Shown here: one piece after another, positions 43,907 through 64,000 of the stretch | Position numbering within the stretch: position 1 is the first letter of the stretch | Layout of the letters: every line of letters starts with the position of its first letter | DNA from: Clostridia bacterium | GTDB lineage: Bacteria > Bacillota > Clostridia > Christensenellales > DTU072 | Reading direction: 5' to 3' | DNA: 64,000 nucleotides | Assembly: GCA_045601385.1 (NCBI GenBank) | Contig: JAZRZM010000005.1 | Span: forward strand, 823-64,822 | The notes under the pieces: model-generated | What the model was told of the DNA's origin: nothing | The model's database searches: none | Seen by the model: only the letters and a program-made list of their open reading frames with translations | Program-made: the position numbers and the translations under genes

Positions 43907-44860
43907 TTAATTCCGTTCGGCAAGTCGCATGATTTTACGCATACGGTGGTTGACGCAACTTTTCGTAACGGGCGGCGACGACATCGCCGCGATTTCTTCC
44001 AGCCCCGCGCTCTCGTTTTCAAGCCGCAGGCGACACGTCTCGCGCAGGTCGTCCCCGAGCGTTTGCCACACGTCGCTCGACATCAGTTTTTTGATCGCCG
44101 CGATCTGCTCGGCGGCGGTCCGTACCTTTTTACCGATGTTGGCAAGGTCGAAATTCTGCGCGCGGTTCAGATCGTTATTCATTCTCCTTTCCGCCATAAT
44201 CTCATACAAACGGAGCGTCGCTTCGCTCGCTTCCAGGTAGGCAAGCACTACGCCGATCGCTTCGCCGCTTTTCAAAAAAACGCCGCTGCCTTTCTTGCGC
44301 GTCTGCACTCTGCCTTTTTCGATATGTGGCAAAGAAGAAATCAGTTTTACGACGTCCTCTTTTACCATATCCGAGTTGAGATTAAAACAAAGCAAATAGC
44401 CTTTGCTTCTGCTCGCTTCGCCGAAAACTTCGGTTTTTTCGGGCGTTTTCAGCGTTCCGCACGACAAAAACAAACCGGCAAGATAGGCTCTGCGCATTCT
44501 TTCGGACGAAACAAGTTCTTTCGGGACGCAGTCGATCAAGGTATATTTATCGCGCACGATTCCGCATTTTTCAAAAATCGGCGCGGCTTCTTTTGCCGGC
44601 AAAGAGGCGCAAAAAAGAGGCGCGCCGTCCACGTCGCCGACGGTTTTTTCCGGTTTATAGCGAAAAATTCGCTCGATTACATCGCACACAAGGTCGATAA
44701 AGGATTTTTCCCGCGCCGAAAAAGACAATTCAAAACCGTTTTTCGTAAAAGAAATTTCGCCGCAACCGCGAATGGCTCCGCTCAAAAACGGAACGCACGC
44801 CGCGTCGGAAAACGTAACGGAATACAGTTCCCGCCTAACGGTCTTGTCGACGCTCTCCAT
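43907..44860 (-). CDS. whiA: DNA-binding protein WhiA
   Basis: LAGLIDADG-like AYLAGLFLSCGTL and the C-terminal HTH SCVNHRMRKIMRLAE. The start is uncertain: ATG at 44860 or 44920. Both overlap the murB 3' end. Confidence 0.8.
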   Translation of the reverse strand: MESVDKTVRRELYSVTFSDAACVPFLSGAIRGCGEISFTKNGFELSFSAREKSFIDLVCDVIERIFRYKPEKTVGDVDGAPLFCASLPAKEAAPIFEKCGIVRDKYTLIDCVPKELVSSERMRRAYLAGLFLSCGTLKTPEKTEVFGEASRSKGYLLCFNLNSDMVKEDVVKLISSLPHIEKGRVQTRKKGSGVFLKSGEAIGVVLAYLEASEATLRLYEIMAERRMNNDLNRAQNFDLANIGKKVRTAAEQIAAIKKLMSSDVWQTLGDDLRETCRLRLENESAGLEEIAAMSSPPVTKSCVNHRMRKIMRLAERN

Positions 44861-48486: not shown

Positions 48487-50022
48487 TTATAAATTAACCT
48501 CACAGTTCGGATCGGAAGGCCACTTGCGCCCCACGCGCAACCTTTGCCACACGCCGCGAAGCCCTTTCGGATTATACTTTTCGCGCGGGCAATAATTTAT
48601 CCCCTGCTCGTCCATTTCGGCGAAAAATCCGACAAGACGACTTTCAAAATCGGCAAAATTTTTGTTTTCCGACGCCGTCCAAGCCGCTTCGGCAAGCGCC
48701 TGCAAACGGGGATAGATCTGAAAATCGAGTTTCTTCTTGTCATAAACGTATTCCGTCCAAAGCGGCGCTTCGACGCCCAGCACGTTCTTATGCGCGCAAT
48801 CGGGTATGTCCATGTGTTCGGGTGTGAGATTGTACACCTTTTCAAGAGTCGTGGCTATGTAGGGATAATCGAGATAGCATATCATCGCGCGCGAAAGTAT
48901 CACCTTTCCGCCGTTTTTCACGCGTTCCATTGCCGCTTTCGGTCCGCGCCACCATTGCACGACGGCACTTTCCGGCAAATCGTCGCAGTCGAGTATCTCG
49001 TCCCACCCGATCAGCGTCTTTCCTTTCCCTTCCAGATATTTTGCCATTTCCGCGGTAAAATATCCCTGCAAGTTGGATTCGTCGCGTATTCCCTTTTCGC
49101 GCATAAATTCGTGACAACGGGGGCATTCTTTCCACTTGGTACGCGGTACTTCGTCGCCGCCGATATGAAAATAGGGCGACGGGAACAGTTCCGCCACTTC
49201 GTCGATTACGTCCCGACAAAACGCCCAAAAATCGGGGTTGCCGATACACCCGACGGTGTCCTTGACGCCGACTTTATTGCTGACGGCAAGCGGCTTTTTT
49301 TCGCACGAAAGATCGGGATAAACGGAAAGCGCGGAAGTAAGGTGTCCCGGCATATCGATCTCCGGTATGACTGTGATATAATTATCGGTAGCGTACGCCA
49401 CAATTTCGCGTACCTGTTCTTGTGTAAAGAAACAGCCTTTACCATATTCGTCTTTGCTGCGCTTGCCGATAACGTTCAGCCAGTCGCCTTGTCGCACGCT
49501 CCCTTTCACGCAAAGATCGGGATGCTTTTTTATTTCGATACGCCAACCTTGATCTTCGGTCAGGTGCCAGTGAAAAACATTGAGTTTGTAGTACGCCATA
49601 TTGTCAAGGATCTGCTTGATCTCATCCATACCGAAAAAGTGGCGCGCGACGTCCAGCATAAATCCTCTGTGCTTAAAGCGCGGTTTATCGTTTATACGGC
49701 AATACGAAAAAGCCCCCGACCGCGACAGCTGACACAAGGTGATCATGCCGTAAAACGCCCCTTTTTCGTCGGAAGAACGCACCTCGATTCCTTTTTCGTC
49801 GGCATTGAGAATATATCCTTCTTCGGCAACGGATCGGTCGGAAACAAAGCGTAAAAACGCGTCTTTTTCTTCGACAATCACAGGCGCAAAGGGACTCATC
49901 TTTTTTATGACCGCTCTTCCGAGGCGTTCGCCGTATTCTCCGAGACAAACGGAAAAACCGCTTTTCAATTCAATAGTTCCCGATCCGATATTGCTTTCGT
50001 ACGGTTTCGGTATTATTCTCAT
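48487..50022 (-). CDS. beta-N-acetylhexosaminidase (GH20)
   Basis: RGFMLDVARHF, FHWHLTEDQGWR and HIGGDEV. 511 aa. Confidence 0.9.
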   Translation of the reverse strand: MRIIPKPYESNIGSGTIELKSGFSVCLGEYGERLGRAVIKKMSPFAPVIVEEKDAFLRFVSDRSVAEEGYILNADEKGIEVRSSDEKGAFYGMITLCQLSRSGAFSYCRINDKPRFKHRGFMLDVARHFFGMDEIKQILDNMAYYKLNVFHWHLTEDQGWRIEIKKHPDLCVKGSVRQGDWLNVIGKRSKDEYGKGCFFTQEQVREIVAYATDNYITVIPEIDMPGHLTSALSVYPDLSCEKKPLAVSNKVGVKDTVGCIGNPDFWAFCRDVIDEVAELFPSPYFHIGGDEVPRTKWKECPRCHEFMREKGIRDESNLQGYFTAEMAKYLEGKGKTLIGWDEILDCDDLPESAVVQWWRGPKAAMERVKNGGKVILSRAMICYLDYPYIATTLEKVYNLTPEHMDIPDCAHKNVLGVEAPLWTEYVYDKKKLDFQIYPRLQALAEAAWTASENKNFADFESRLVGFFAEMDEQGINYCPREKYNPKGLRGVWQRLRVGRKWPSDPNCEVNL

Positions 50023-50390: not shown

Positions 50391-50774
50391 TTACGCCACC
50401 GAGCCGAACACCGTATTCGCGTCTTGCCATTGGCGATAACGTACGGGTACAAGGACGAAGAAATACACGGTCAAAGTGATGAGCGAGAAGAAGAACCACT
50501 TGAACACGTTGCCGAGGATTTCGCCGTATCTGCCGTCGAATTGCAGCGGAACGCCGACGATAAACGTATGTTTGCAACGGTAGCGATTCATGATCAAAAG
50601 CGCCCACGCCCAACCGAAAAACGGAATCGCAATCAAAATCACGCAGAACAGATTCTTAAAAAAGTTTCTTCCCGGCGTACCGGTATACTGCGATTGCAGA
50701 TTACGCGTCTTTTTACTGTTATTCAGAATATCACCCGAAAGGGTAATCGTGCAATTATTCAAACTCGGACCCAT
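50391..50774 (-). CDS. small membrane protein of unknown function
   Basis: 127 aa with two hydrophobic helices (LFCVILIAIPFFGWAWALLI and WFFFSLITLTVYFFVLV). The coding call is based on composition only. Confidence 0.45.
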   Translation of the reverse strand: MGPSLNNCTITLSGDILNNSKKTRNLQSQYTGTPGRNFFKNLFCVILIAIPFFGWAWALLIMNRYRCKHTFIVGVPLQFDGRYGEILGNVFKWFFFSLITLTVYFFVLVPVRYRQWQDANTVFGSVA

Positions 50775-50834: not shown

Positions 50835-51959
50835 TCAAAAACCGCATTTGGAACGGATTTCGCGGATATTTTTTACGATATGAAAGTCAACGCACAGTCT
50901 CTCGAACGTCGCCCCGCGTTTTTCGTGGAGAGAACAAAACGCCAGGGTGAGAGCGTCGAACCCCTCGTCGCCGCCGAGGATCAACGAAGCGATGAAGTCG
51001 TACGAATAGTGATGGATGCGGTTGATTTCTATCAGCGTTTCCGCGCGCAATTCAAGCGTATCTTTCAGTTTCAGCGAAGCGACGGCTTCGGGATACGGGC
51101 AATTACGGCGCATGATAAAATCGACAAGCGCAGAAACGGTCAGATCGTACCGACCGGACAAACCCATTTTTTTCGCGACTTTGGCATACGGCGTCTCGCT
51201 GCGGGCGGCGGTTTCGGTCAGAACATAGTCGATTTGGTTTTCGGGATATGTTTCGCGATAGCCGAGTTGCTCTTTTTGTAAAGAGGATAAGACCTTTTCA
51301 AACGGCTCTTTCCCGAGGCGCGGCGCGCTTGCCACTCCGGTACCGTCCAAAACTTCGAGGAGTTGTTCCATGCAGTCGCCCTTTTCCGAATTGATGCCGA
51401 GTTCGATATTGATAATCAGGTTGCCGTCGTGCGTGCCTTCGAGCAGATAGCGATAACTGTTATACGGATAGGATGAAGGATCTCCGTCGGGTGAAAGAGA
51501 ATGAACGTAGCGAATCTCGTGCGCCAGCGTGCCCGAATAAACACGCTTAAAAGTAGCGTCGCGGAAAGGCTTATCCACTCTGCGAAAACCGCTGTTGAAG
51601 TTGCGCCCGTATTCTTCCGCGACAAAGCGCGCATACACTTTCGCCGCTTCTTCGCGATCGGATTTGACGATAAAAAAGGCGGCGTCGTCCAGTATACAGT
51701 ACGACAGAAGCACGACTTTTTCCGACTCGTCCGCGCTGTCTTGCAAAATCTTTTCCATAATCTTCTTATTGGACTTCTTTTTCAACGCGTCGAAGCCGTG
51801 TATGCAATGCATGGACACCAAAGCGATATAGCCTGCGCCGCGACGAACGAGGTCTCCGCTCGTCTCTTCCATTGCTTTTACGTAGGATAGCGACTCGCCT
51901 TCCAGCGCGTCCACATACCCGGCAGTCTGTTCTTCCACTTGATTTTTCTTATTTGCCAT
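50835..51959 (-). CDS. Y1 (IS200/COG1943-type) transposase-like protein lacking the HUH motif
   Basis: 374 aa. The N-terminal 175 aa are colinear with COG1943 proteins: VVLLSYCILDDAAFFIVK aligns with 'iyAYCLMgNHiHLLlk', and RYVHSLSP...SYPYNSYRYLLEG with 'RYIHqNP...dYkWSSY.eY'. The two His of HUH are replaced by A and F. Confidence 0.55.
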   Translation of the reverse strand: MANKKNQVEEQTAGYVDALEGESLSYVKAMEETSGDLVRRGAGYIALVSMHCIHGFDALKKKSNKKIMEKILQDSADESEKVVLLSYCILDDAAFFIVKSDREEAAKVYARFVAEEYGRNFNSGFRRVDKPFRDATFKRVYSGTLAHEIRYVHSLSPDGDPSSYPYNSYRYLLEGTHDGNLIINIELGINSEKGDCMEQLLEVLDGTGVASAPRLGKEPFEKVLSSLQKEQLGYRETYPENQIDYVLTETAARSETPYAKVAKKMGLSGRYDLTVSALVDFIMRRNCPYPEAVASLKLKDTLELRAETLIEINRIHHYSYDFIASLILGGDEGFDALTLAFCSLHEKRGATFERLCVDFHIVKNIREIRSKCGF

Positions 51960-51993: not shown

Positions 51994-54900
51994 TTATTCC
52001 GTAATCATTATACCGTTCAGCCCGTCATACTGCACGACATAAAAATCGCCGTCGGCAAGAGTCCCCGCTTCCGCGCTGAATTCTCCCGTCTTGACGACCG
52101 ACGTATCCACCGACGCACCGCCGGTCAGAAGCATGTATATGCCGCTGTATTGAAGCAGGTCCGCGGTATCGATATAATATGTGACGTCGTATATTTCGCA
52201 TCTGTTTTGACGGAAAATATTGACGCCCGTCTGCACGATCCGATCGAACGCCGCGACGAATTCTTCCCGTCCGCTTGTTTGCGTAAACACAAACGTATCG
52301 CTGCCGTAATACAGTCTATCTACCGAAAAACCTTCTTTCATATCGGCAAGGAAGTTTTTATACAGTTCGTCCAAAGCGTCTTTTTGGGGATCTGTAAGTG
52401 CGGCTACGGGCTTCGTAAACAGGAATTTAACCGTCGTAACCGGCTCCGCCGTCAGTATAGACATATCGCGTATTCCTTCATATTCGTCGCTTAAAGCGTT
52501 TTTGTCCGTTTCAAAATTATTGCGGATATAAGCATACAGTTTATCGCTGTCGGCGAGATAGGTAAACGGTACCTTGATATACAAATAATCGACAAGATCG
52601 ACCTCTCTGTCCACCAGCGCGAAAAAGTCGCTTTCATTGCATTCGTTTATTTCTTTACCGCCATACAGGACGTTTCCGTATAAAGTAAGTTTATCGGCAA
52701 GGAAATGATATATCGCTTTTGCAAGCGCTTCTTTCTGACTGTTTACACCGCGCCAATTCGATATCAGATCGACGCGCAACACGTACTCCGTCGTTTCGCA
52801 CGAAAGAGCGACGCTGTCCGAAATTCCGGCATAAAAATCGTTTGCCATATGTGCGAAAGACAGCATTTCATCCGAGACGTTTTTGACAGTCGTATCGAAC
52901 GACGCGGTCTGCGAAAAACTCGCGTCGGCGTCGAACGTCACATATTCCGATCCGCTTTCGTACAGGTGTAAATCTTTGCCGAGATAGGCTTTTGTCACGC
53001 CGTAGTTCTTCATATAATTCAGGACGGAATAAATCCGTTCTTTCTGCTCGTCACTACCCGTCCAAAGATCGTTGGGGGTGAAGACGAGTTCAAAGTATTC
53101 GCGGTTGGGCGACAGTATGGCGATATCGGACAAGAAGTCGCACGAACCGTTCTCGCCGACCATTTCGGCGCGCAATTTGGCAAAATCTCCTCCGAGCACC
53201 CACGACGAATAAACGGTATGCGCGTTGGGCATATACACGCGGATAAGAAGATCCGTCTCGCTCCGCTCCCGCGTATGAACGGTCAATTCTTTTTTGCCGG
53301 TCATGGAGAATACGATCGGCGTCAGATCTATGGTATAACTGCCGTGGCCGAGAGTGCCGCAAACGGCGGTATATTCTCGAACGGATTCGTCATACGACAG
53401 AAGAAGTCTTCCCGACAATAGTTGCAGGACGCCCTTTCTTTTCAGCAGTTCTCCGTAGGTGACGGAATAAGAAATATCATACTCGACGTCGCTCTTTACT
53501 TCGGTAAACATATTGACGCCCACTTCCAGCGCGCCCCCTATCAGCGTAGTACAGGCGCTTTCCGAAGCGTTCGTATTGAAATCGGATTTTTCTTTCCCGA
53601 CCTTGATATTGGCGATACCCGTACTCTCGTACATTGTCTTCAAGAGGAAATAGAATACCGACGAAGCCGCCGTTTTTGCTTTTGCACTCGGAGCATAGGC
53701 TTCGACGCGCAATTCAAAATAGTCTTCGTTCGGACTCATCAGCGAAATCTCTTTAATCAGCGACTTGAAAGTCGTCCCTTCGACCTTGTACTTTTCGTTG
53801 GTTTCATCGTAAAGGATCGCGCTCAAAGCGTCCAGATTGGTCGGATTATGCAAATAAGCGATCGCCGACGGATTATTGGCGGTCGTCACGCGCAAAACGT
53901 ATGCGTTTTCGGACGGCGTAACGACGGATACGTCGATAACTTTCGGAATGATGCTGAATTCCTGCAAACAGTAATTTGCGTTTTCATAATACTTATTATT
54001 GGGATCGTCCACGCGAACGAAGAGGTAGTATACGTTGTTTATCTCCTCGCAAAGAGCGCTCAATTCGCTCGGCAAAGCGGCGTACTCTTCTTTGGAATAA
54101 CTATACAAAATATCTCCGCTCAACGTTACGGGAACGAGACGGCTTTTTTTGATAACGTAAAACTCGAAAGGCTCCAACCCCTCACGCTGCGTCGCCGACA
54201 TCGCGTCGTATTCTTCCTGCGTAAAGAATGCCGACACGCATTCCCCCGCAAAGCGCGCGTACACATAATGGGTGCATATCCCTTTGTACCTTTCGTCCAG
54301 TTTTGCGTATTGTTCGGGCGTGTACACATACCGAACGGCTTCGCCCGTGTAACCCTGCGTAAGACTGCGTTTGGTCAGCGTGTATATATAAGATACATTG
54401 ACAAGGGCTTGCGACTCGGGCGGCAAAGCGGCGTATTCTTCGGCGGAATAGACGATATCGCCCAGCGTATATCTCTCCGAACGGATATACAACGCGCGCT
54501 TCCCTGCCGACAAAGCCTCGTACTGCTCCTGCGTGCAAACCGTCAGGACAGAATCGGGATCCTCCGCATATTCGGTCGCCGTCATTCTTTCGAGCACCTC
54601 TCCGCTTGCCGATTTCAGCACATACGCCGAATAAATGACGTAATAGGTGCCCGAAGCGGGATCAAAGGGGTGCGCTTCGTCCGTTTCCAGACTGTCCGCC
54701 GAGATATAATACAGCACGTCGAGATTCATATTCTCGTCATACCCTTTGACGGCAAAGTAGGTACTGCGTTCTTCTTTGGTAAGATTCATCTGCAAAAACT
54801 GTTTGTACGGAATCAGATTCTTGCTTTGGATATAGTCCATACGAATATAGTTTTCGCTCGGGAATGCGAATTCGGGAATCTGCTTGCCCGTATCCATACC

Positions 54901-57900
54901 GAACGACGCCTCGGACACGTTGCCGTAGAAGAAAATCGTATTATTGAATACGAACGGTATATCCTGCAAGTCGTACACGGTAATAACGTACGACGTGGAC
55001 AAATAATCGTAGTCGCGGTATTGCACGCCTACGGTCACTTTGACGCCTGTTTTACTGTAAATATCGGTGCGGAAACCGCTATACGATATGTCGCTGTCGG
55101 TCATGGCGATATACTTCATCATATAGCCGACGGAAACGCCGCGCGCGTTGAATTTGGTAAACGTCAGATTGAGTATACCCGTCGAAACGTCCTGCTCCGC
55201 GTTACGGATATAATTGGTAAGCGGCTTATGCGTTTCGTTGATATCCACACCCGTCAGCGTGGCGCGCCATACGTAAATATAGACGTCGCAAGAATGGTTG
55301 CGATACTTGATGGCAATACGCCGATATCCCGTGGAAGAATCGATTTTGTCGTAGGAAAGCATTTCGGGCGTAATCGGCACGTTACCGACCGTACCGTCGG
55401 CATAATAAACGGTCAAAGTCTTTACCGTCAATACGTCGCCGATATACTCGGTCATCATGACGTCCCAACCTGCGGCGACCTCGCCGAGCACATAAACGGT
55501 ATTGCTGACGGTATACATCGACGAAAGTTTGTTCGTGTCCCGTAAAAAGTTCTCCGCTTCCTGCAACGTGACAAAGGATTTCTTTGCCGAAAGCGTAACG
55601 CCCTCGACGATTTCGTCTCCGTTCGCATTAAGATAATTCCCGTTGCGGACAAGATAATAATAGGTATCCGCCGCACGGTAAATCTGCGTTTCATAAAGGA
55701 AAGCGCGCGCTTCCGCCGCCGTATCGAAGATCGCTTTCGTCCTGCTTGCCCCGCTTTCCATATAGTCGTTTATGGCAAGTCCGACCTCGTTCAGATAGTC
55801 GCCTCCGCGCTTTACATAGTATTTTTCATTTTCACAAACGATTCCGTTCAGTATATCGGCATATTCGTTTGCGTCGTCTTCACTATTATAATAATAAAGA
55901 AGTTTGTATCCGTTTTCGGTCACGAAAGAACCGTACGTGTCCGCCAAAACGTATTTTCCCGTTACCGAATCCGACATAACCTTGTACGGAGCGCGCGAAA
56001 GCGCAAGAATTCTGCGGCGCATGGACTCGGCCTCGTCCCGCGCCTGTGCGTTCGTTTTGCCCGTCAATGAAACAAAGTAGGGCGTATAACCCGTTCTCCC
56101 TTCTTCGTCCACGTATTTCCCGTTGCCGTTCGCGATATAATATCCCGTCGTCGTCTGCGCCAAAGTCAGAGCAAGCAGTCTTGCACAGGCTTCTTCGCTT
56201 TCTTTTTGCGTGGCAAAATAGAGTTTTTCTCCCGTCGTGACGACCGAACCGTCTTCGGAAACGTATCCGAGCGTATAAACACCGTTGCCGTCCGAATACA
56301 AAACGGCGGCTCTTCCGTAGCGGTCAAGCACGGCGTACTGATTACCCATACCGTAACCGGCGATGTATTTGCCCGGTACTTCGGCGGAAATATCCTCGTC
56401 GCTACCGATATAGCGCACCGCCACCACGTCGTATGTGTTGGATGAAACGGATATGGAAAAGACGGTGGAAACGTCGGTATTCTGCGCGGCGACGCTATGA
56501 TGCAATTCGACCAGAACTTCTCCGATCACGTTAGCGATATCGGACGAAAGGGCTCCGCCCTTTTCCCAACCGGTCGTAAACTTTTCACCGGGACGATCTT
56601 CGTTAAGAGCCGCTATTCTCCTTTCGGCGGCGTCGAGCGTGGTAAGTCCGGCGTCAATAATGGTCGAGACGTTGCCGTCTTCATCGACGATCTCCCCGTC
56701 CGCATTGTAGACGACGTACAATTTTTGATACAGCGCATACCACCAACCGTCGTTTTGACGGAAAGACGAAACGCCCCGGAGCGTCTTGATCGGTTCGTAC
56801 GGTCCGGCATTGTAATAGGTGTAAAAAGTAAATTCCGAAAAATCGAGACTCTGCGTCGTCAGATACGCCGTTTTCCCTTCGGCGATCATCGCAAGCCCCG
56901 TTTCGCTTCTCGGACCGACCGAAATCTGCAAAGTCGTATCGTCCGTCGCGCCGAGGAAATAGAACTTGACGGGAATAAGCGTATCGCCCTCGGTCAGCGT
57001 GTTGGTGTCCGAGTCGTAAATCATATCTGCGGTCGCGTTTATTTTGCGGGAAGAGTTACCGACCGACAAAGTCACGTACACGCCGGCAAGATCCCAGTCT
57101 TCGTACTGTACGTAATTCGTCTTGCAGATATTAACGCCGGCGTCAACGTCCAGCGTGACTTTAATCGAAGTAAGCAACCACTCTTCGTTTTCGATCAAGT
57201 AGTAATAAAAATCGGTATAACAGGCATAGATGTCCGCCTTTTCAAAATAGACGAAAGAATCGTCCGCTACCTCCTGCTGATAGTCGGTATAACACGGATC
57301 GTAATAAGTCAAACGTCCGATACACCGTCTGCCGATTTTTGTTTTTTCGGCAATTAAAGACGGGTTTGCCGCCGTTTCCGCCTCGCTGTAAACATAGAGT
57401 TTACATTCGTCGCTTATATAAAGGTTATCGTACGCTTCGTTGGTAAAGGTCATCTGCGCCTTGCCGCCCGTCGACATTTCGCCGGCGTTCGCGGTGATTT
57501 CCGAGCCGTACAAAAGGAGCGTTTCGTTATTGCGGTAAGTCACCGAATACACGGCGCCCGTCAGGTCTATTTTTTCGGCGCCGGCGACATAAACCTTCGT
57601 CGCTTCCCTGATGACTTCCAATCGGCTGTCTATCATCGGTTGCGGTACGACGCGGCAGGTAATGGCGTCGGCAAAAATCTCTTCGGCGTCCTCTTCAAGA
57701 AGGGCCGCGTCCTCTTCGGGCAAGCGAAAACGTATCGTCTTCTGATACACGCCGCCGTCCGTGCCCTCGGCACAGTACAGACTCATACCGTCCGCCAGCA
57801 TGTCTTCCGTCACTTGGCGGTAGTCGCTCGTCGTTTCGTTGTTGTATTTAATATAGTATTGCAAAGAGCCGATGGATATGGTATCGCCGACAAAGAACCT

Positions 57901-59685
57901 TTGACCGGAAATAGTGTCGGTAGACGGCACAATATACATATTGGTCGGATACCGTCCCTCCACGCCGACATACAGCGAAACGTGGTGTTCGGGCACGCCG
58001 CCGTACACAAGCCACAGTTCGTACCACCCGGGCTCGGCGATATCGAGGGGCTGATTGACGGTTTCCGCACCGGCGTTGACGACCGAAATCATCGAACTGT
58101 TCAGCGAGAAAGTCTGCACCGTCCCGTCGTCGTACGTTACGCGCACCTGTCCCGTGGCAAGGTCGATCGTGTCGCCCTGTATCATGTTCTTGATCGTCGT
58201 CGTATCGGCATATTTGGTCGGCATAATATCGTCGATATTGACGATTGCCATTTCTTTATAGGCTTTACCTTGCGTCTTGCTGGTAAACGTCGTCGTCGGC
58301 GCGGTACGGATAATAACCGTTCCGTCGTCCCGCACTTCATCCACGATTCCGCCGCCTATGGAAAACACGCTGCTTGTACCATAGGTACCCAACATGGTAT
58401 TGTCCGCGATGATGTCGCCCGGTTTGACCGCCACCGTCGTCAGATTGTAGGGCATGTATGCCGAAACGGTAATCGTCCCCATTCCGTCCGCGTTATTCTT
58501 CATCGACGTCACCTTGCCGTAACTTTTCGACAAAACGGCGTCCAACGTGATTTCTTTACCGTCGCGGACGATATGGTTACTCGCAAGTTCCATATCCGGT
58601 TGCACCGTGCCGCCCACTTTGACGTACGCGTTACCGTAATAAGTATAAGTAAACTCGGTCGGATAGTCTTCGGGCAGATATAAAAGAATCGCCTCGACCG
58701 TCCTTTCCACGCTGTCGTCGATGCTGACGTACAAGTCGTTTTTCAAATCGGGCACGTCACGATAGTCGCCCTCTTTGGACGCACCCGTCGCCACGTCGTA
58801 CAAAGGCGTCTGCTCGTTGTCGTATCCGACGCGAAGGCTCATGCCGGAAAGATCGTAGCGATTATGGATTTTTGTCGTATAGGTACCGCCGAAGGCTTTG
58901 ACGAAAAGTTCGGCGGCGTCTTCCGCTTCGGCAAGCGTGGCGTACCCGGCAAAATCGTTTCCGTCCACCGTCGCGCCGTATGCGTCAAGAGGCTTACCCG
59001 TCCTGCCGTCGTGCACGGCGTAGACGTATTGTCCCATACCGATGTAGACAAAATTGTTTTCCGCCGAATCGACCACGCTTATCGAGGTGGGCGTTTTTTC
59101 TTCGTAATATACACGGAACGAAAGGATCTCTCCGTAATAGAAAGCGTTTATCGTCTGTTCGCCCAACCGATACGGATCGTACTCGTCCAACATGTCTTCG
59201 GTCAAAGCGAAATCCGATGTCTTCTCTTCGCTCTTATCCAACCCTTTTTCAAAATTCATCCGCACCGTCGCCCCGGCAAGGTCGATCGGTTGCCCCGCGA
59301 CGTAGCGCGTCACGTACGGTTGGGAAAGAAGTTCGATCGAAGAAAGCCGCCATTCGGTTACGACGATGTCGAACGAGGCGGACACGCCCGCATAGCGCAC
59401 GACGACCGTCTGCTCGCCCGGTTGCGTCATATCAAAAGAGGTCTTGTCGATCATCTCTTCGGTCAGGTCGAAAACCTGCGTTTTGTTATTATTGTAAACA
59501 ACGTGGATTTGCGCGCCGTCGATAAGAAGACTGTCTCCGGCGGTATATTCGGTCATTTCGATACCGTCAACCGTCATAGAAACGGCTTTGGGCGCGGCAA
59601 AAGTCAGATCGGGGGAACAAGCGCACAGCAGAAAAAGGCATGAAACGACAAGCAAAAACGTCCATAAAAAAGATTTCTTGCTCAT
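51994..59685 (-). CDS. giant modular surface lipoprotein (2,563 aa)
   Basis: ATG at 59685 (MSKKSFLWTFLLVVSCLFLLCAC) with a GGGGG SD. Signal peptide plus lipobox. Multiple Big_3-like Ig domains ('Y..Gd.ldl.Ga.v.v.Y.ng..') plus three further repeat classes. The frame is uninterrupted for 7.7 kb. Confidence 0.9.
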   Translation of the reverse strand: MSKKSFLWTFLLVVSCLFLLCACSPDLTFAAPKAVSMTVDGIEMTEYTAGDSLLIDGAQIHVVYNNNKTQVFDLTEEMIDKTSFDMTQPGEQTVVVRYAGVSASFDIVVTEWRLSSIELLSQPYVTRYVAGQPIDLAGATVRMNFEKGLDKSEEKTSDFALTEDMLDEYDPYRLGEQTINAFYYGEILSFRVYYEEKTPTSISVVDSAENNFVYIGMGQYVYAVHDGRTGKPLDAYGATVDGNDFAGYATLAEAEDAAELFVKAFGGTYTTKIHNRYDLSGMSLRVGYDNEQTPLYDVATGASKEGDYRDVPDLKNDLYVSIDDSVERTVEAILLYLPEDYPTEFTYTYYGNAYVKVGGTVQPDMELASNHIVRDGKEITLDAVLSKSYGKVTSMKNNADGMGTITVSAYMPYNLTTVAVKPGDIIADNTMLGTYGTSSVFSIGGGIVDEVRDDGTVIIRTAPTTTFTSKTQGKAYKEMAIVNIDDIMPTKYADTTTIKNMIQGDTIDLATGQVRVTYDDGTVQTFSLNSSMISVVNAGAETVNQPLDIAEPGWYELWLVYGGVPEHHVSLYVGVEGRYPTNMYIVPSTDTISGQRFFVGDTISIGSLQYYIKYNNETTSDYRQVTEDMLADGMSLYCAEGTDGGVYQKTIRFRLPEEDAALLEEDAEEIFADAITCRVVPQPMIDSRLEVIREATKVYVAGAEKIDLTGAVYSVTYRNNETLLLYGSEITANAGEMSTGGKAQMTFTNEAYDNLYISDECKLYVYSEAETAANPSLIAEKTKIGRRCIGRLTYYDPCYTDYQQEVADDSFVYFEKADIYACYTDFYYYLIENEEWLLTSIKVTLDVDAGVNICKTNYVQYEDWDLAGVYVTLSVGNSSRKINATADMIYDSDTNTLTEGDTLIPVKFYFLGATDDTTLQISVGPRSETGLAMIAEGKTAYLTTQSLDFSEFTFYTYYNAGPYEPIKTLRGVSSFRQNDGWWYALYQKLYVVYNADGEIVDEDGNVSTIIDAGLTTLDAAERRIAALNEDRPGEKFTTGWEKGGALSSDIANVIGEVLVELHHSVAAQNTDVSTVFSISVSSNTYDVVAVRYIGSDEDISAEVPGKYIAGYGMGNQYAVLDRYGRAAVLYSDGNGVYTLGYVSEDGSVVTTGEKLYFATQKESEEACARLLALTLAQTTTGYYIANGNGKYVDEEGRTGYTPYFVSLTGKTNAQARDEAESMRRRILALSRAPYKVMSDSVTGKYVLADTYGSFVTENGYKLLYYYNSEDDANEYADILNGIVCENEKYYVKRGGDYLNEVGLAINDYMESGASRTKAIFDTAAEARAFLYETQIYRAADTYYYLVRNGNYLNANGDEIVEGVTLSAKKSFVTLQEAENFLRDTNKLSSMYTVSNTVYVLGEVAAGWDVMMTEYIGDVLTVKTLTVYYADGTVGNVPITPEMLSYDKIDSSTGYRRIAIKYRNHSCDVYIYVWRATLTGVDINETHKPLTNYIRNAEQDVSTGILNLTFTKFNARGVSVGYMMKYIAMTDSDISYSGFRTDIYSKTGVKVTVGVQYRDYDYLSTSYVITVYDLQDIPFVFNNTIFFYGNVSEASFGMDTGKQIPEFAFPSENYIRMDYIQSKNLIPYKQFLQMNLTKEERSTYFAVKGYDENMNLDVLYYISADSLETDEAHPFDPASGTYYVIYSAYVLKSASGEVLERMTATEYAEDPDSVLTVCTQEQYEALSAGKRALYIRSERYTLGDIVYSAEEYAALPPESQALVNVSYIYTLTKRSLTQGYTGEAVRYVYTPEQYAKLDERYKGICTHYVYARFAGECVSAFFTQEEYDAMSATQREGLEPFEFYVIKKSRLVPVTLSGDILYSYSKEEYAALPSELSALCEEINNVYYLFVRVDDPNNKYYENANYCLQEFSIIPKVIDVSVVTPSENAYVLRVTTANNPSAIAYLHNPTNLDALSAILYDETNEKYKVEGTTFKSLIKEISLMSPNEDYFELRVEAYAPSAKAKTAASSVFYFLLKTMYESTGIANIKVGKEKSDFNTNASESACTTLIGGALEVGVNMFTEVKSDVEYDISYSVTYGELLKRKGVLQLLSGRLLLSYDESVREYTAVCGTLGHGSYTIDLTPIVFSMTGKKELTVHTRERSETDLLIRVYMPNAHTVYSSWVLGGDFAKLRAEMVGENGSCDFLSDIAILSPNREYFELVFTPNDLWTGSDEQKERIYSVLNYMKNYGVTKAYLGKDLHLYESGSEYVTFDADASFSQTASFDTTVKNVSDEMLSFAHMANDFYAGISDSVALSCETTEYVLRVDLISNWRGVNSQKEALAKAIYHFLADKLTLYGNVLYGGKEINECNESDFFALVDREVDLVDYLYIKVPFTYLADSDKLYAYIRNNFETDKNALSDEYEGIRDMSILTAEPVTTVKFLFTKPVAALTDPQKDALDELYKNFLADMKEGFSVDRLYYGSDTFVFTQTSGREEFVAAFDRIVQTGVNIFRQNRCEIYDVTYYIDTADLLQYSGIYMLLTGGASVDTSVVKTGEFSAEAGTLADGDFYVVQYDGLNGIMITE

Positions 59686-59860
59686 AAGTTTAACCCCCAC
59701 GATAAAATATAAATATATTATATATTACGCGCGCACAAAAAGCAAGAGCCAAAATCATTATTTTTGCCGAAAAAAAAGGAGCGGCACTTATTTAGTGCTT
59801 TACGCTCATAAAACGAGAAAATTCATTGTCACGCGCAAAAAAAAGTCGTATACTGAAAAC

Positions 59861-60529
59861 ATGGTACACTTCGGAAACGATTGGGACGACGTCCTGCAAG
59901 GAGAATTCGACAAAGACTACTATCGCAATTTGCACGACTTTTTGCGCGAAGAATACGCCACGCAGACAGTCTATCCGCCCATGCACGATATCTTCAACAG
60001 TCTGAAAACCACCCCCTATAAAGACGTGCGCGTCTGCGTCATCGGACAGGATCCTTACTTCAATCCCGGTCAGGCGCACGGCATGTGCTTTTCGGTACAA
60101 GAAGGCGTCCCCTGCCCGCCGTCGCTGAAAAATATTTATAAAGAGATTTTTGACGATTTGGGTATCCGAGAACCGAATTGCGGATACCTGATGAAATGGG
60201 CAAAGCAAGGCGTCCTGCTCCTCAACACTGTGCTTACTGTGCGGAAAGGCGCGCCGTTTTCCCACCGCGACAAAGGGTGGGAAACATTCACCGACGACGT
60301 CTTGAAAAAACTCAACGAGAAAAAAGAACCGATCGTTTTTTTACTGTGGGGACAACCCGCGAAGAAAAAAGCGGCGATTATCGATAATCCGATCCACCTC
60401 AAACTCGAAGCGGCGCACCCGTCTCCTATGTCGGCGACAAACGGTTTTTTCGGTTGCAGACATTTTTCAAAAACAAACCGTTTTTTAGTCGAACACGGAC
60501 TCGAACCGATCGACTGGGATCTGAATTGA
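59861..60529 (+). CDS. ung: uracil-DNA glycosylase
   Basis: ATG at 59861. VIGQDPYFNPGQAHGMCFSV and AAHPSPMSA motifs. 222 aa. Confidence 0.93.
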   Translation: MVHFGNDWDDVLQGEFDKDYYRNLHDFLREEYATQTVYPPMHDIFNSLKTTPYKDVRVCVIGQDPYFNPGQAHGMCFSVQEGVPCPPSLKNIYKEIFDDLGIREPNCGYLMKWAKQGVLLLNTVLTVRKGAPFSHRDKGWETFTDDVLKKLNEKKEPIVFLLWGQPAKKKAAIIDNPIHLKLEAAHPSPMSATNGFFGCRHFSKTNRFLVEHGLEPIDWDLN

Positions 60530-61239: not shown

Positions 61240-61788
61240 TTATTTTTTTATTTTGGAAATCCGCACGCACGCGTATTCGTAGCCTTTGATTAAAAGAAAG
61301 TCATATAAAAGGAACAAAACACTAAAAACGATATTAAAAACGACATAAAACGCGCTTTCGGAAAGATTTTGCACCAAAGTGATTTTGGAAAAATCGACGC
61401 TGATCAAACCGAGCGCACGATACGCCACCCAAAAAACAAGACAGGAATAAGCGATTTTTATAAGACAAGAAAGAATAATTTTATACGGTTTATCACCGCA
61501 TTTTTGTTCGGCAAAAACGGTCAGCACGACGTAAAAGCCGCTGCACATAACGAACGAAACGATCTTGACGTTGACGATAAAAAAGCCGACGACCGCCGCG
61601 ACGATGACGGCAAGGACGGCTTCGCGATAGTATTTTTGCGTCAAAGGCAGGACGATACCGATAGCGGAAAGAGCGACGCACGAGACGGAGACGTATCGCA
61701 CGAAATACCCGATCAAAATAAAGACAAGGCTGACCGCCGCGCCGATTCCGCCGAAAGCGAGCCGCCTTGCCAAATCTTTTTTCTTCAT
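61240..61788 (-). CDS. polytopic membrane protein (5-6 TM), unknown function
   Basis: 182 aa, strongly hydrophobic. Starts 1 nt after the stop of the J-like gene. Confidence 0.6.
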   Translation of the reverse strand: MKKKDLARRLAFGGIGAAVSLVFILIGYFVRYVSVSCVALSAIGIVLPLTQKYYREAVLAVIVAAVVGFFIVNVKIVSFVMCSGFYVVLTVFAEQKCGDKPYKIILSCLIKIAYSCLVFWVAYRALGLISVDFSKITLVQNLSESAFYVVFNIVFSVLFLLYDFLLIKGYEYACVRISKIKK

Positions 61789-61789
61789 A

Positions 61790-62479
61790 TCAGCAGCAAC
61801 GAATCAGGTCGCCGCCCATACATTCGCAACAACAGTCGGCGCACAGGAGCGAATTACAGCAGTCGCACACCGTACAACCGCGCCGCGCGTTGCGGAAATC
61901 GGCTTCCGGTCCCGAATAGACGCTCTCGCCGTTCTTTTCCGTTTCACTGTAAAAAGAATTGCCTTTTTCGGTCGTATGCGCGCGCATTTCCGTTTCCAAA
62001 GCGGTTTTTGCGTCGGCATATTTGGTATTCGACGGCTCCATATTGCAAGCGAATTCCAACTGTTTCAAAGCGTCCGCGTGCCAATTTTTCCGATAAAAAA
62101 TCGCCGATTGCAGATAGTGCCACTTTGCCGAGCGCGACGTACAGTCGTCCAGGATCTTTTGCGCGGCGTCCATTTGTCCGCTTTTAATAAAGGCTTCGGC
62201 TTTATCAAGATCCATCGAATACCGATTGTCGTCGGTCTCACTGTAAAAAGAACCGCTTTGCGAAGAAAAACTTTCGTACCCTCTCTCACGCAGAATATCG
62301 CACGCGTCGTTATATGCGTCTTCTATTTCTTCCAAGCGCGCGCACGCTTCCGCGCCCTCTTCGCCCGGATTAAAACGCTTTTCCTCATATAACGCGCGTT
62401 TTTGGGTGTACGCGGCATATAATTCGTCTCTCGACGCGCTTTCGCTTACGCCTAAAATTTCAAATGGGTTTCTTTGCAT
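61790..62479 (-). CDS. J-like domain protein lacking HPD, with TPR-like middle and Cys-rich C-terminus
   Basis: NPFEILGVSESASRDELYAAYTQKRALYEEKRFNPGEEG aligns with the J domain, but YHPD is replaced by YEEK. The tail CTVCDCCNSLLCADCCCECMGGDLIRCC has 11 Cys in 28 aa. Confidence 0.7.
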   Translation of the reverse strand: MQRNPFEILGVSESASRDELYAAYTQKRALYEEKRFNPGEEGAEACARLEEIEDAYNDACDILRERGYESFSSQSGSFYSETDDNRYSMDLDKAEAFIKSGQMDAAQKILDDCTSRSAKWHYLQSAIFYRKNWHADALKQLEFACNMEPSNTKYADAKTALETEMRAHTTEKGNSFYSETEKNGESVYSGPEADFRNARRGCTVCDCCNSLLCADCCCECMGGDLIRCC

Positions 62480-63309
62480 TTTTCTCCTTTGGCAGCCAAA
62501 ACCTGCTCGGTGCGGCTCCTAAAACCGCGATATATGATGTTGGATAACGCGCCTTCGCCGACGGTCGCGTCGATGTCTTTATACCCCTCGATAATCCGAT
62601 CGATACAGTCGTACAAAAGGGGGCGCGCTTGTTTTTCCACGTCGTCGAAACAAAAGTCTTCTCCGCAAAAAGAAAGAAACGGATTATAACAACCTTTGGA
62701 AAAATCCCTCTTTGCGTCGTCGGTCGCGTCGATAAGATAAACCCATTTCCCGACGTAGAACAATAGTTTTTTCAACGGCGCGTCGGCTTTTTTTGTCAGA
62801 CTTTCGCCGCACGCCATCATGATTTGTCCGAAAAGTTCTCCTATGCAGGCGGCGTTTTTTTTCGCCTTTTCGCTCTCCCGTATACGATTATACCCTTCCT
62901 GCACCTTTTTTGTCAAATCGGGCATACGTTTCGCCGCTTTCTTAAAGGCAGGTTTCAGCACGGCTTTCCATACGCGGTGCCTGTTTTCGTCCGTCACGTC
63001 GTCACTCGCCTTAAAATAGCCCAGTATTATATTGATATCGGCTACGCGCCCGAGAATGTCGCTGTCCTTTATCGACGGGACTTTGCTTATCGGATGCGTT
63101 ATGCAATGTTCTTCGCAAAAAATCGGTTCTGCGTCCTCATAATTATAACCGAGCAGAGCCAACAAAACAATGTCGTAATTGAGGGTGAACCGCATCGCCG
63201 TCCCGTACCGTCTGCCGATCGCTTTACACAAGCCGCAATAATAGGAACGGTACGTTTGGTAATCCTTAATCAGGATATTGGGTTTATCAATAACGACATA
63301 ACCGAACAT
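62452..63309 (-). CDS. DUF5685-like Cys/His-rich protein
   Basis: Starts MFGYVVIDKPNILIKDYQTYRSYYCGLCKAIGRRYG..., which I recall as the N-terminal signature of DUF5685. ATG at 63309. 28-nt overlap with the J-like gene. Confidence 0.6.
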   Translation of the reverse strand: MFGYVVIDKPNILIKDYQTYRSYYCGLCKAIGRRYGTAMRFTLNYDIVLLALLGYNYEDAEPIFCEEHCITHPISKVPSIKDSDILGRVADINIILGYFKASDDVTDENRHRVWKAVLKPAFKKAAKRMPDLTKKVQEGYNRIRESEKAKKNAACIGELFGQIMMACGESLTKKADAPLKKLLFYVGKWVYLIDATDDAKRDFSKGCYNPFLSFCGEDFCFDDVEKQARPLLYDCIDRIIEGYKDIDATVGEGALSNIIYRGFRSRTEQVLAAKGEKCKETHLKF

Positions 63310-63316
63310 ATTTTGT

Positions 63317-64000
63317 TTACACCAAACCGACTTTGCGATAGACTTTGGAAAGCGTCCTACGCGCGATGGCGCTCGCCTTTTCGGCTCCTTTTTTTGCCGT
63401 CTCCAACACAAAGTCCTTGTTCTTCATATAGTCGAGATACCGTTCGCGAATGGGACGGAGTTTTTCGACGACGGCTTCGCCGACAGCCGTTTTCAGTTCG
63501 GCATAGCCTTTCCCCTCGAAGTCGCGTTCGAGCGTCTCGATAGGCGTATCGGTGACCGAAGAAAAAATCGTCAAAAGGTTACTCACCCCCGGTTTATTTT
63601 CTTCGTCATACCGCACGCGTCCGTCGCAGTCGGTGACCGCGCGCTTAAACTTGCGCATGATGTCGTCGGGCGTATCAATCAGGCTGACCGTCGCGTTGAC
63701 GTCGGGATCGGACTTGCTCATCTTTTTGGTCGGATCCTGCAAAGAAAAGACCTTCGATCCCTGCTTGCCGATATAGGCTTCGGGCACGGTGAAAGTCGGG
63801 CTGTACAAGTTATTGAACCGTATCGCAAGATCGCGCGACAGTTCGAGATGTTGTTTCTGGTCGATACCCACCGGCACATAGTCGGTTTGATACAAAAGAA
63901 TATCGCTCGCCATCAGCACGGGATAATCGAGCAGTCCCATATTGATATTATCCGCGTGTTTTGCCGATTTATCCTTAAATTGAGTCATCCGTTGCGCTTC
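63317..64000 (-). CDS. trpS: tryptophan--tRNA ligase, C-terminal about 228 codons (gene continues off the right edge)
   Basis: GIDQKQHLELSRD and KMSKS. The frame stays open to position 64000 (…EAQRMTQFKDK). Confidence 0.9.
   Translation of the reverse strand, partial: EAQRMTQFKDKSAKHADNINMGLLDYPVLMASDILLYQTDYVPVGIDQKQHLELSRDLAIRFNNLYSPTFTVPEAYIGKQGSKVFSLQDPTKKMSKSDPDVNATVSLIDTPDDIMRKFKRAVTDCDGRVRYDEENKPGVSNLLTIFSSVTDTPIETLERDFEGKGYAELKTAVGEAVVEKLRPIRERYLDYMKNKDFVLETAKKGAEKASAIARRTLSKVYRKVGLV

Follow-up and report, generated by a model that had tools for sequence, protein, structure and literature searches.

Giant repeat adhesins of Gram-positive bacteria, such as Ebh, SasC and the Rib/alpha-like proteins, are megadalton-class rods built by tandem domain duplication, and their repeat copy numbers vary between strains. 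A second described group is formed by the exported multi-domain surface proteins of Firmicutes, in which tandem Big_3 immunoglobulin-like (Ig) domains provide scaffolds for display or adhesion. One of these, AJ89_07570 of Lactococcus lactis IBB477, contains four Big_3 domains together with DUF285 and MucBP, and contributes to adhesion to mucin and polystyrene (PMC5071367). We analyzed a 64,000-nucleotide (nt) stretch of a Clostridia bacterium genome (assembly GCA_045601385.1, contig JAZRZM010000005.1, positions 823 to 64,822; the whole stretch is called the window), and found in it the gene for a lipoprotein precursor of 2,563 amino acids (aa). With this protein, the well-known theme of giant surface proteins in Gram-positive bacteria takes a lineage-specific form.

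Like AJ89_07570, the window protein is a multi-domain protein, by prediction exported, with tandem Big_3 scaffolds. On the other hand, it is anchored by an N-terminal lipobox and not by a C-terminal wall anchor, lacks both MucBP and DUF285, exceeds 2,500 aa, and consists over about 60% of its length of modules that belong to no described family. Its family is also confined to few uncultured Clostridia.

With the Ebh-, SasC- and Rib-type adhesins it shares the form of a rod-like surface protein that arose from domain duplication, with variable copy number. Its repeats, however, are ancient and divergent, with no repeats at the DNA level. Several module classes without relation to one another alternate along the chain, a lipid serves as anchor, and the gene resides at a fixed core locus instead of an accessory island.

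Reading frame, start site and lipid anchor

The gene is one unbroken open reading frame (ORF) of 7,692 nt, spanning 12.0% of the window. An earlier sequence-only reading, made without database searches, had described a single uninterrupted minus-strand ORF of 2,563 aa over 12% of the window, and the coordinates agreed with it. The features of the gene as a whole and of its 5' end are as follows.

51994-59685, minus strand: the whole lipoprotein gene; stop codon TAA at 51996-51994; 100% identity to database protein P0001
59617-59685, minus strand: signal peptide and lipobox, aa 1-23; putative lipidated Cys23
59686-59860, minus strand: upstream intergenic region shared with a divergent UDG gene; GGGGG, TATAAT and a terminator-like hairpin, read from the sequence

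The longest ORF (51994-59700) opens at an in-frame GTG upstream, and the ATG at 59685 gives the 2,563-aa product. We took this ATG to be the real start, because a Shine-Dalgarno sequence, GGGGG (59698-59694), lies 8 nt 5' of it with TATAAT farther upstream (59722-59717), all the orthologues start with M-[SKR]-K, and P0001, from an NCBI record, is identical to the window ORF from this ATG on. The TATAAT region may act as the promoter. A terminator-like hairpin, GCACTAAATAAGTGC followed by a run of T (59784-59798), was also seen on the same strand, about 100 nt 5' of the start.

The composition of the protein is unusual, with 8.3% Tyr and 8.7% Thr, and only 0.7% His and 0.5% Trp. It is also acidic (14.3% D+E versus 8.0% K+R).

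The N-terminus reads MSKKSFLWTFLLVVSCLFLLCAC followed by S, in which lysines precede a hydrophobic core and then L-C-A-C. For a lipobox we looked for [LVI][ASTVI][GAS]C with a conserved Cys, behind a positive n-region and a hydrophobic h-region. The sequence, MSKK-FLWTFLLVVSCLFL-LCAC before S, provided the charged n-region, the hydrophobic h-region and the lipobox, with Cys at the -2 position, where the relatives have Val or Ala. Cys23 was invariant in the alignment of the 18-member family, and [LVFAT][ACSTV][AGS]C occurred at the same N-terminal place in about 28 relatives. The signal-peptide stretch was the sole hydrophobic segment of the whole protein. The window protein is, by these features, a predicted lipid-anchored exported protein, and the signal peptide and lipobox named in the sequence-only reading were confirmed by the tripartite N-terminus and the invariant Cys23.

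The same reading had seen no LPXTG, SLH, dockerin, choline-binding or collagen-like anchor. Motif and Pfam scans agreed. The motif scan of the protein found no LPXTG-like motif, C-terminal hydrophobic segment, collagen G-X-Y or GW/WYY, and Pfam gave no match to SLH, dockerin or CW_binding in the window protein or in 18 relatives.

Ig domains and further repeat classes

The domain map below was assembled from Pfam, hidden Markov models (HMMs) trained on the family, hhalign, BLAST of tiled segments and AlphaFold models, the last graded by the predicted local distance difference test (pLDDT).

59356-59571, minus strand: Ig1, Big_3, aa 39-110; contains the best Pfam PF07523 stretch, aa 45-109; family HMM, hhalign
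59101-59325, minus strand: Ig2, Big_3, aa 121-195; BLAST aa 44-144 versus 125-243, E=2e-8; HMM, hhalign
58669-59088, minus strand: Ig3, aa 200-339, split by B1; HMM; AlphaFold pLDDT 85-95
58864-59028, minus strand: B1 insertion within Ig3, aa 220-274; strand-helix-strand in the model; missing from short-form orthologues
58216-58668, minus strand: conserved core, predicted tandem sandwich-barrel hybrid motifs, aa 340-490; AlphaFold pLDDT about 90-97, Foldseek, profile
57958-58206, minus strand: Ig4, aa 494-576; tiled BLAST, HMM, hhalign
57631-57918, minus strand: Ig5, aa 590-685, with an acidic insert at about aa 655-670; only the N-terminal half scores
57136-57600, minus strand: Ig6, scoring from aa 696 to about 726, and a Cys/Tyr-rich, poorly conserved stretch to aa 850; boundary uncertain
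56914-57132, minus strand: Ig7, aa 852-924; HMM, hhalign
56344-56874, minus strand: doubtful Ig8-like region, aa 938-1114, carrying B2 (aa 987-1032); HMM independent E-value 0.061; hhalign 4-14%
55519-56343, minus strand: class B array B3-B7, aa 1115-1389; HMM; long-form orthologues only
55270-55464, minus strand: Ig9, aa 1408-1472; HMM, hhalign
54976-55242, minus strand: Ig10, aa 1482-1570; HMM weak; hhalign 96-98%
54538-54972, minus strand: region X, aa 1572-1716; invariant NTIFFYGN motif at the start, then degenerate C-like units
54016-54537, minus strand: five class C repeats, aa 1717-1890; TxEEYxAL; each two short helices and a beta-hairpin
53320-53949, minus strand: module D1, complete, aa 1913-2122; in all family members; AlphaFold pLDDT 84-94
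52024-53295, minus strand: D2 (aa 2131-2260, N-part), D3 (aa 2265-2345, middle part) and D4 (aa 2384-2554, C-part); long forms only

Pfam detected Big_3 (PF07523) in the window protein in two stretches (39.2 bits, E=8.8e-10; gathering threshold 21.2 bits). All of the 18 family members scored above this threshold (best E=1.3e-18), and no other Pfam family was consistent among them. Another seven to eight Big_3-like copies were seen only with the family-trained HMM. The HMM and hhalign windows together gave nine confident Ig copies and one doubtful; the probabilities of the hhalign windows are in part circular, since these same segments are among the templates, and the BLAST repeat pairs are free of this circularity. 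The claim of at least eight Big_3-type Ig segments was thus borne out, and the example quoted for it was the Pfam stretch at aa 45-109.

BLAST of the whole protein against itself returned only the identity match, and the repeats were revealed by tiled BLAST and iterated HMMs. Besides the Ig1-Ig2 pair, tiled BLAST matched aa 50-101 with 504-564 (E=2.5e-4). Class C was detected as aa 1718-1768 versus 1822-1889 (E=1e-6), with five copies of about 35 aa by HMM. Class D appeared as aa 2002-2119 versus 2433-2550 (E=5e-8), and HMM gave four copies or part-copies of a module of about 210 aa.

Class B, with seven HMM copies of a beta-hairpin/helix mini-module of about 45 aa, was the weakest class. An HMM built from one orthologous B position scored the other copies at 2-5 bits. 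All seven cross-matches fell on other B sites, and in shuffled controls 0-14 of 300 shuffles attained those scores. The three further repeat classes of the sequence-only reading therefore stood, C and D by BLAST and B by the shuffled controls.

That reading had been unable to assign these classes to a named family. Classes B, C and D gave no match in Pfam, NCBIfam, PHROGs, PDB or BFVD. The window protein had no match in NCBIfam or PHROGs, and no enzyme, toxin or phage family was matched anywhere in it by these two or Pfam. Pfam and NCBIfam covered two Big_3 domains only, and by no means all segments fell into established families.

For class B, the alignment found no match among 5.8 billion proteins, and the profile found only chance matches to RRM helices among PDB sequences (E>=0.05). 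Two candidates were rejected. One was YegP/DUF1508, with an hhalign probability of 3.8% against an E. coli YegP sequence. The other was the choline-binding repeat (CW_binding_1, LytA-type), with an hhalign probability of 1.2% and no Pfam match.

A conserved core between the Ig domains

The most conserved non-Ig block, aa 340-490, had not been singled out in the sequence-only reading. An AlphaFold model of aa 196-500 (305 residues, 17 homologues) reached a pLDDT of 89.3 and a predicted template-modeling score (pTM) of 0.80. In this model B1 forms a strand or hairpin, a 15-residue helix and a strand, placed between the first strands and the remainder of Ig3, and aa 340-490 form an all-beta double module.

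Foldseek searches of PDB with the model returned lineage-specific inserts of the RNA polymerase beta' subunit, made of sandwich-barrel hybrid motifs (SBHM), as all of the top 50 matches (Thermus, 2auj; cyanobacterial Si3, 8emb). For the core, E ranged from 1.9e-4 to 1e-3, with a probability of up to 1.0 and 21-24% identity over about 130 columns. The whole-model TM-scores were low because the match covers part of the 305-residue model. The beta' inserts and Si3 are arrays of sandwich-barrel hybrid motifs (PMC10895346), and the predicted fold of the core is a tandem of this known fold.

The core thus resembles the SBHM arrays, and also the LytM domain of SpoIIQ (3tuf), in fold, tandem arrangement and lack of catalysis. 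Compared with the SBHM arrays, it is predicted to be extracellular, lies inside an Ig array, is unrelated to transcription, and did not show membership at the sequence level.

The core also bears on whether the protein might be a peptidoglycan hydrolase, or a regulator of one, with an M23/LytM-type core on an Ig stalk. The sequence profile of the core matched the degenerate LytM domain of SpoIIQ weakly (E=0.05) and an M23 peptidase more weakly still (E=0.34), and Pfam Peptidase_M23 matched 3 of the 18 members (best E=0.075). All of these M23 and LytM matches, however, were below significance. The invariant columns of the core held Y, P, G, S, K, N, V, T and F, and no conserved His or Asp that would make an HxxxD/HxH zinc site. 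Moreover, the structural neighbors were the non-catalytic RNA polymerase inserts. An active M23 peptidase was rejected for lack of metal ligands and of significant profile matches, and we consider a hydrolase or hydrolase regulator very unlikely. In our reading the core is a barrel-sandwich module of the interaction type, without catalytic activity.

Region X, the C repeats and the D modules

The AlphaFold model of the distal part (aa 1572-2130, 15 homologues) was mixed, with a pLDDT of 73.4. D1 was modeled with confidence (pLDDT 84-94) as three strands, helices with a beta-alpha-beta-type sheet, and a C-terminal part built of strands only. The C repeats each formed two short helices and a hairpin at a pLDDT of 60-90. 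A pLDDT below 50 was seen for two linkers and for the initial 35 residues.

Structure searches of PDB and BFVD with this model found nothing at E<=1e-3. The best of the weak matches were generic alpha+beta sandwiches of M16-like or ferredoxin-like type, at a probability below 0.25. The sequence-only reading had suggested that the non-Ig modules may be novel folds; the searches of PDB and BFVD do not suffice to claim this. The X/C/D profile gave only chance beta-lactamase matches among PDB sequences (E about 0.02).

The C-terminal 35 or so residues of D (G-x-Y-x-V-x-x-G-T-L-x-H-x-S-Y-T-I-D-L) resembled the C-terminal hairpin of MBG. The last 65 or so positions of the D profile were matched by P0040, a two-partner-secretion protein of 3,100 aa that carries 24 MBG_2 repeats (YGX-type); each of these repeats scored 10-17 bits, and the library E-value is inflated by 23 nearly identical repeats. 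Alignment of the D C-terminus with MBG_2 (PF18676) by hhalign gave a probability of 74%, over 27 columns only, and the reverse HMM search was not significant. Pfam MBG_2 had no match in 20 D segments. The terminal hairpin of D is thus alike to that of the MBG_2 repeats of P0040, which we interpreted as a resemblance, probably without membership.

A small family and growth of the gene in place

Searches with the full protein found 18 relatives among 5.8 billion clusters, and also one unrelated Big_3 protein. Five of the relatives were full-length (2,425-2,470 aa, 39-45% identity), one was partial (1,604 aa, 44%), and twelve were shorter proteins of 1,620-1,780 aa. Exhaustive HMMER searches with the X/C/D profile retrieved 28 proteins among 1.84 billion representatives. 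All but two were of the same family or fragments of it, and one member, P0028, retained the family architecture at 25-32% identity. The two exceptions were P0040 and P0044, a short, internally repetitive protein (265 aa, E=2.3e-6) with Pfam matches that seem spurious.

A search of 185,579 species genomes gave only four loci, all in metagenome-assembled genomes (MAGs) of uncultured Clostridia, one of them from rumen. The family appears, from these searches, to be restricted to a small set of uncultured Clostridia from gut and rumen. The sole source name found for it was 'bacterial Ig-like domain-containing protein', on a relative (MBO4539225.1).

In every relative examined the locus was fixed in the order UDG, lipoprotein, an orphan of about 375 aa, a membrane protein of about 128 aa, and UvrC. 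A relative on a 973-kb contig had the order TrpRS, DUF5685, two small ORFs, ArsR, UDG, lipoprotein, 377-aa protein, 129-aa protein, GH20, UvrC, HAD, MurB, WhiA and DnaE, which is also that of the window. Genomes with the short form had the same order without GH20. Identity to the relative on the 973-kb contig was 85% for TrpRS, 79% for UvrC and 74% for UDG, and fell to 54% for GH20, 43% for the 374-aa partner and 39% for the lipoprotein.

The same gene order in long- and short-form genomes indicated orthology of the two forms of the protein at a single core locus, and the gene appears to be vertically inherited there. The B modules and D2-D4 were present in the long forms only. Their absence from the short orthologues showed that the long form arose through accretion of modules in place.

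Among the long forms, the Ig and core scaffold, region X and D1 were 42-62% identical, and B1, B2, the B array and D3-D4 only 21-32%. Taken together, the B, C and D2-D4 additions were 21-39% identical and occurred in a subset of the members. The five C repeats were an expansion peculiar to this genome, with one to four in other members. These sequence comparisons showed growth from about 1,650 aa to about 2,450-2,560 aa, by insertion of B into and between Ig domains, expansion of C, and serial part-duplication of D.

The relatives and the locus also argue against an assembly artefact, a chimera, a decaying pseudogene or the cargo of a mobile element. Such an origin might be suspected, since the source genome is a MAG, the ORF is unusually long, and one orthologue of the downstream neighbor matches Y1_Tnp at E=0.025. 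On the other hand, full-length, collinear orthologues with 39-45% identity were found in at least five independent assemblies, on contigs of up to 973 kb, so that the ORF is neither chimeric nor frameshifted. The housekeeping synteny was the same in distant relatives, PHROGs had no matches, and the neighbor had neither an HUH motif nor a significant family match. The GC content of the lipoprotein gene was uniform with the flanking DNA. No direct or tandem repeats of note were found in the gene at the DNA level, which rules out repeat collapse or chimerism as an issue. An artefact or mobile element was largely refuted, and we give it next to no credence.

Proposed role of the protein

We favor, with moderate confidence, a non-enzymatic, fibrillar surface protein of monoderm Clostridia, in which a wall-spanning stalk displays X/C/D as a binding head. 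The protein would be exported by Sec, acquire diacylglycerol on Cys23 and lose its signal peptide, leaving a mature chain of about 2,540 aa tethered by its N-terminus to the outer face of the cytoplasmic membrane. The proximal scaffold (Ig1-3, the sandwich-barrel core and Ig4-10) would then form a stalk long enough to cross the wall, and the distal X, C repeats and D modules would be shown outside it. There they would most likely bind a ligand, e.g. a host or plant polymer, other cells or matrix. This topology, the division into stalk and head, and ligand binding are put forward as a plausible arrangement.

A surface location is favored because of the lipobox, the lone hydrophobic segment and the invariance of Cys23 across the family, and because Big_3, a surface-protein domain, was present in 18 of 18 members, with 9-10 Ig copies. 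A non-enzymatic role is favored because the core has a protein-protein-type fold without catalytic His or Asp, and no enzyme families were matched. The lower identity of the additions relative to the scaffold, which is 45-60% identical among relatives, would fit a diversifying exposed part, and the small size of the family and the same locus in long- and short-form genomes also argue for this reading.

The sequence-only reading had proposed a very large envelope-tethered adhesin or matrix protein. The ORF, lipobox and domain map supported a very large, N-terminally lipid-anchored, exported multi-repeat protein, and the adhesin or matrix role is suggested by this architecture.

Several points weigh against the favored role. 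No ligand-binding family (lectin, CBM, MucBP, Cna or VWA) was detected in the protein. An N-terminal lipid anchor is uncommon for so long a protein, relative to LPXTG anchoring. The genomes of the family are all MAGs, and the organism's envelope type is an assumption based on its class. The gene was also present at its core locus in every relative seen, which is less typical of accessory adhesins and suits a structural role in the envelope equally well.

Such a structural component, the chief alternative to the favored role, would be a lineage-defining, lipid-anchored spacer, or surface-layer-like, organizing the wall or setting its thickness, possibly with the conserved 375-aa and 128-aa neighbors. 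The core locus adjoined uvrC, murB and whiA in every relative, and the triad of the lipoprotein, the soluble orphan of about 375 aa and the membrane protein of about 128 aa was conserved while GH20 comes and goes. The core also resembles the LytM domain of SpoIIQ, which is non-catalytic and serves as a protein-protein scaffold in the envelope, and this points the same way. On the other hand, Pfam found neither SLH nor CWB2, nor any other domain for wall binding or self-assembly, and the adjacency of murB and whiA is plain synteny and does not speak for a functional link. The distal modules, moreover, are fast-evolving and variable in copy number, a behavior more often seen in exposed parts that bind ligands or are antigenic. 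We regard a structural component as rather unlikely, and retain the fibrillar surface protein with a binding head as the preferred reading.

A more far-reaching proposal would be that B, C, D and X are new folds or families, and that the lipoprotein forms a lineage-defining envelope system of a clade of uncultured Clostridia, together with its two constant neighbors as cytoplasmic (about 375 aa) and membrane (about 128 aa) partners. We think this improbable. If true, it could represent, for example, a lipid-anchored fibrillar coat that replaces an S-layer or sortase-anchored adhesins.

By itself the protein opens no long-standing question, and it will be useful to specialists rather than surprising. 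The surface proteome of uncultured Clostridia from gut and rumen is poorly charted, and the protein contributes to it an orphan family with clear limits. It also yields candidates for three or four new domain families, whose boundaries and seed alignments could go directly into curation in the manner of Pfam. The growth of a giant surface protein at one locus, through mini-module insertion, repeat expansion and serial part-duplication, can moreover be followed here in a clear natural case.

Neighboring genes

The other two genes of the triad lie downstream of the lipoprotein gene.

50835-51959, minus strand: 374-aa soluble orphan, with its own AAAGGAG site, 34 nt past the lipoprotein stop
50391-50774, minus strand: 127-aa membrane protein, third gene of the triad; two hydrophobic segments; syntenic

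The gene for the 374-aa protein had been called an HUH-less transposase-like gene, 35 nt downstream. The gap is in fact 34 nt, and the transposase likeness was not supported. Y1_Tnp (PF01797) was matched by one of six orthologues only, at E=0.025, and for the 374-aa protein itself Pfam returned nothing at E<=10 but an unrelated zinc ribbon. The data gave no support for an IS200/IS605 Y1 transposase, as there was no HUH motif, no significant family or PDB match, and strict synteny. The orthologues (31-44% identity) always lay directly downstream of the lipoprotein gene, in long-form as well as short-form genomes, and shared invariant C-terminal Y-S-Y and R..C motifs. No transmembrane segment was found in the protein, and a word-seeded search gave three relatives. 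The gene appears to be a syntenic, vertically inherited orphan and not a mobile element.

The 127-aa protein matched DUF898 below threshold (26.4 bits, cut-off 28). A promoter-like sequence, TTGACG-17-TAAAAT, lies ahead of its gene at 50824-50796.

A GH20 beta-N-acetylhexosaminidase gene (48487-50022, minus strand) lies between the 127-aa gene and uvrC. The long-form relative L001/L002 has this gene and the short-form genomes L007 and L008 lack it. It is therefore an insertion, acquired in the lineage in which the lipoprotein was enlarged as well.

On the other side, the uracil-DNA glycosylase (UDG) gene (59861-60526, plus strand) is opposite in strand to the lipoprotein gene, and co-oriented with it in the relatives L001, L007 and L008. 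This orientation represents a single-gene inversion, which gave the divergent intergenic region of 175 nt. Farther upstream, a conserved block (61240-62479 and 62452-63411, both minus strand) encodes DUF5685 (E=7e-68), a 229-aa protein with weak DnaJ/TPR signals, and a 182-aa orphan. The block was syntenic in relatives at 55-69% identity.

WhiA (43919-44860, minus strand) was only 41% identical to its L001 orthologue, versus 79% for UvrC, an unexpected divergence for a housekeeping regulator.

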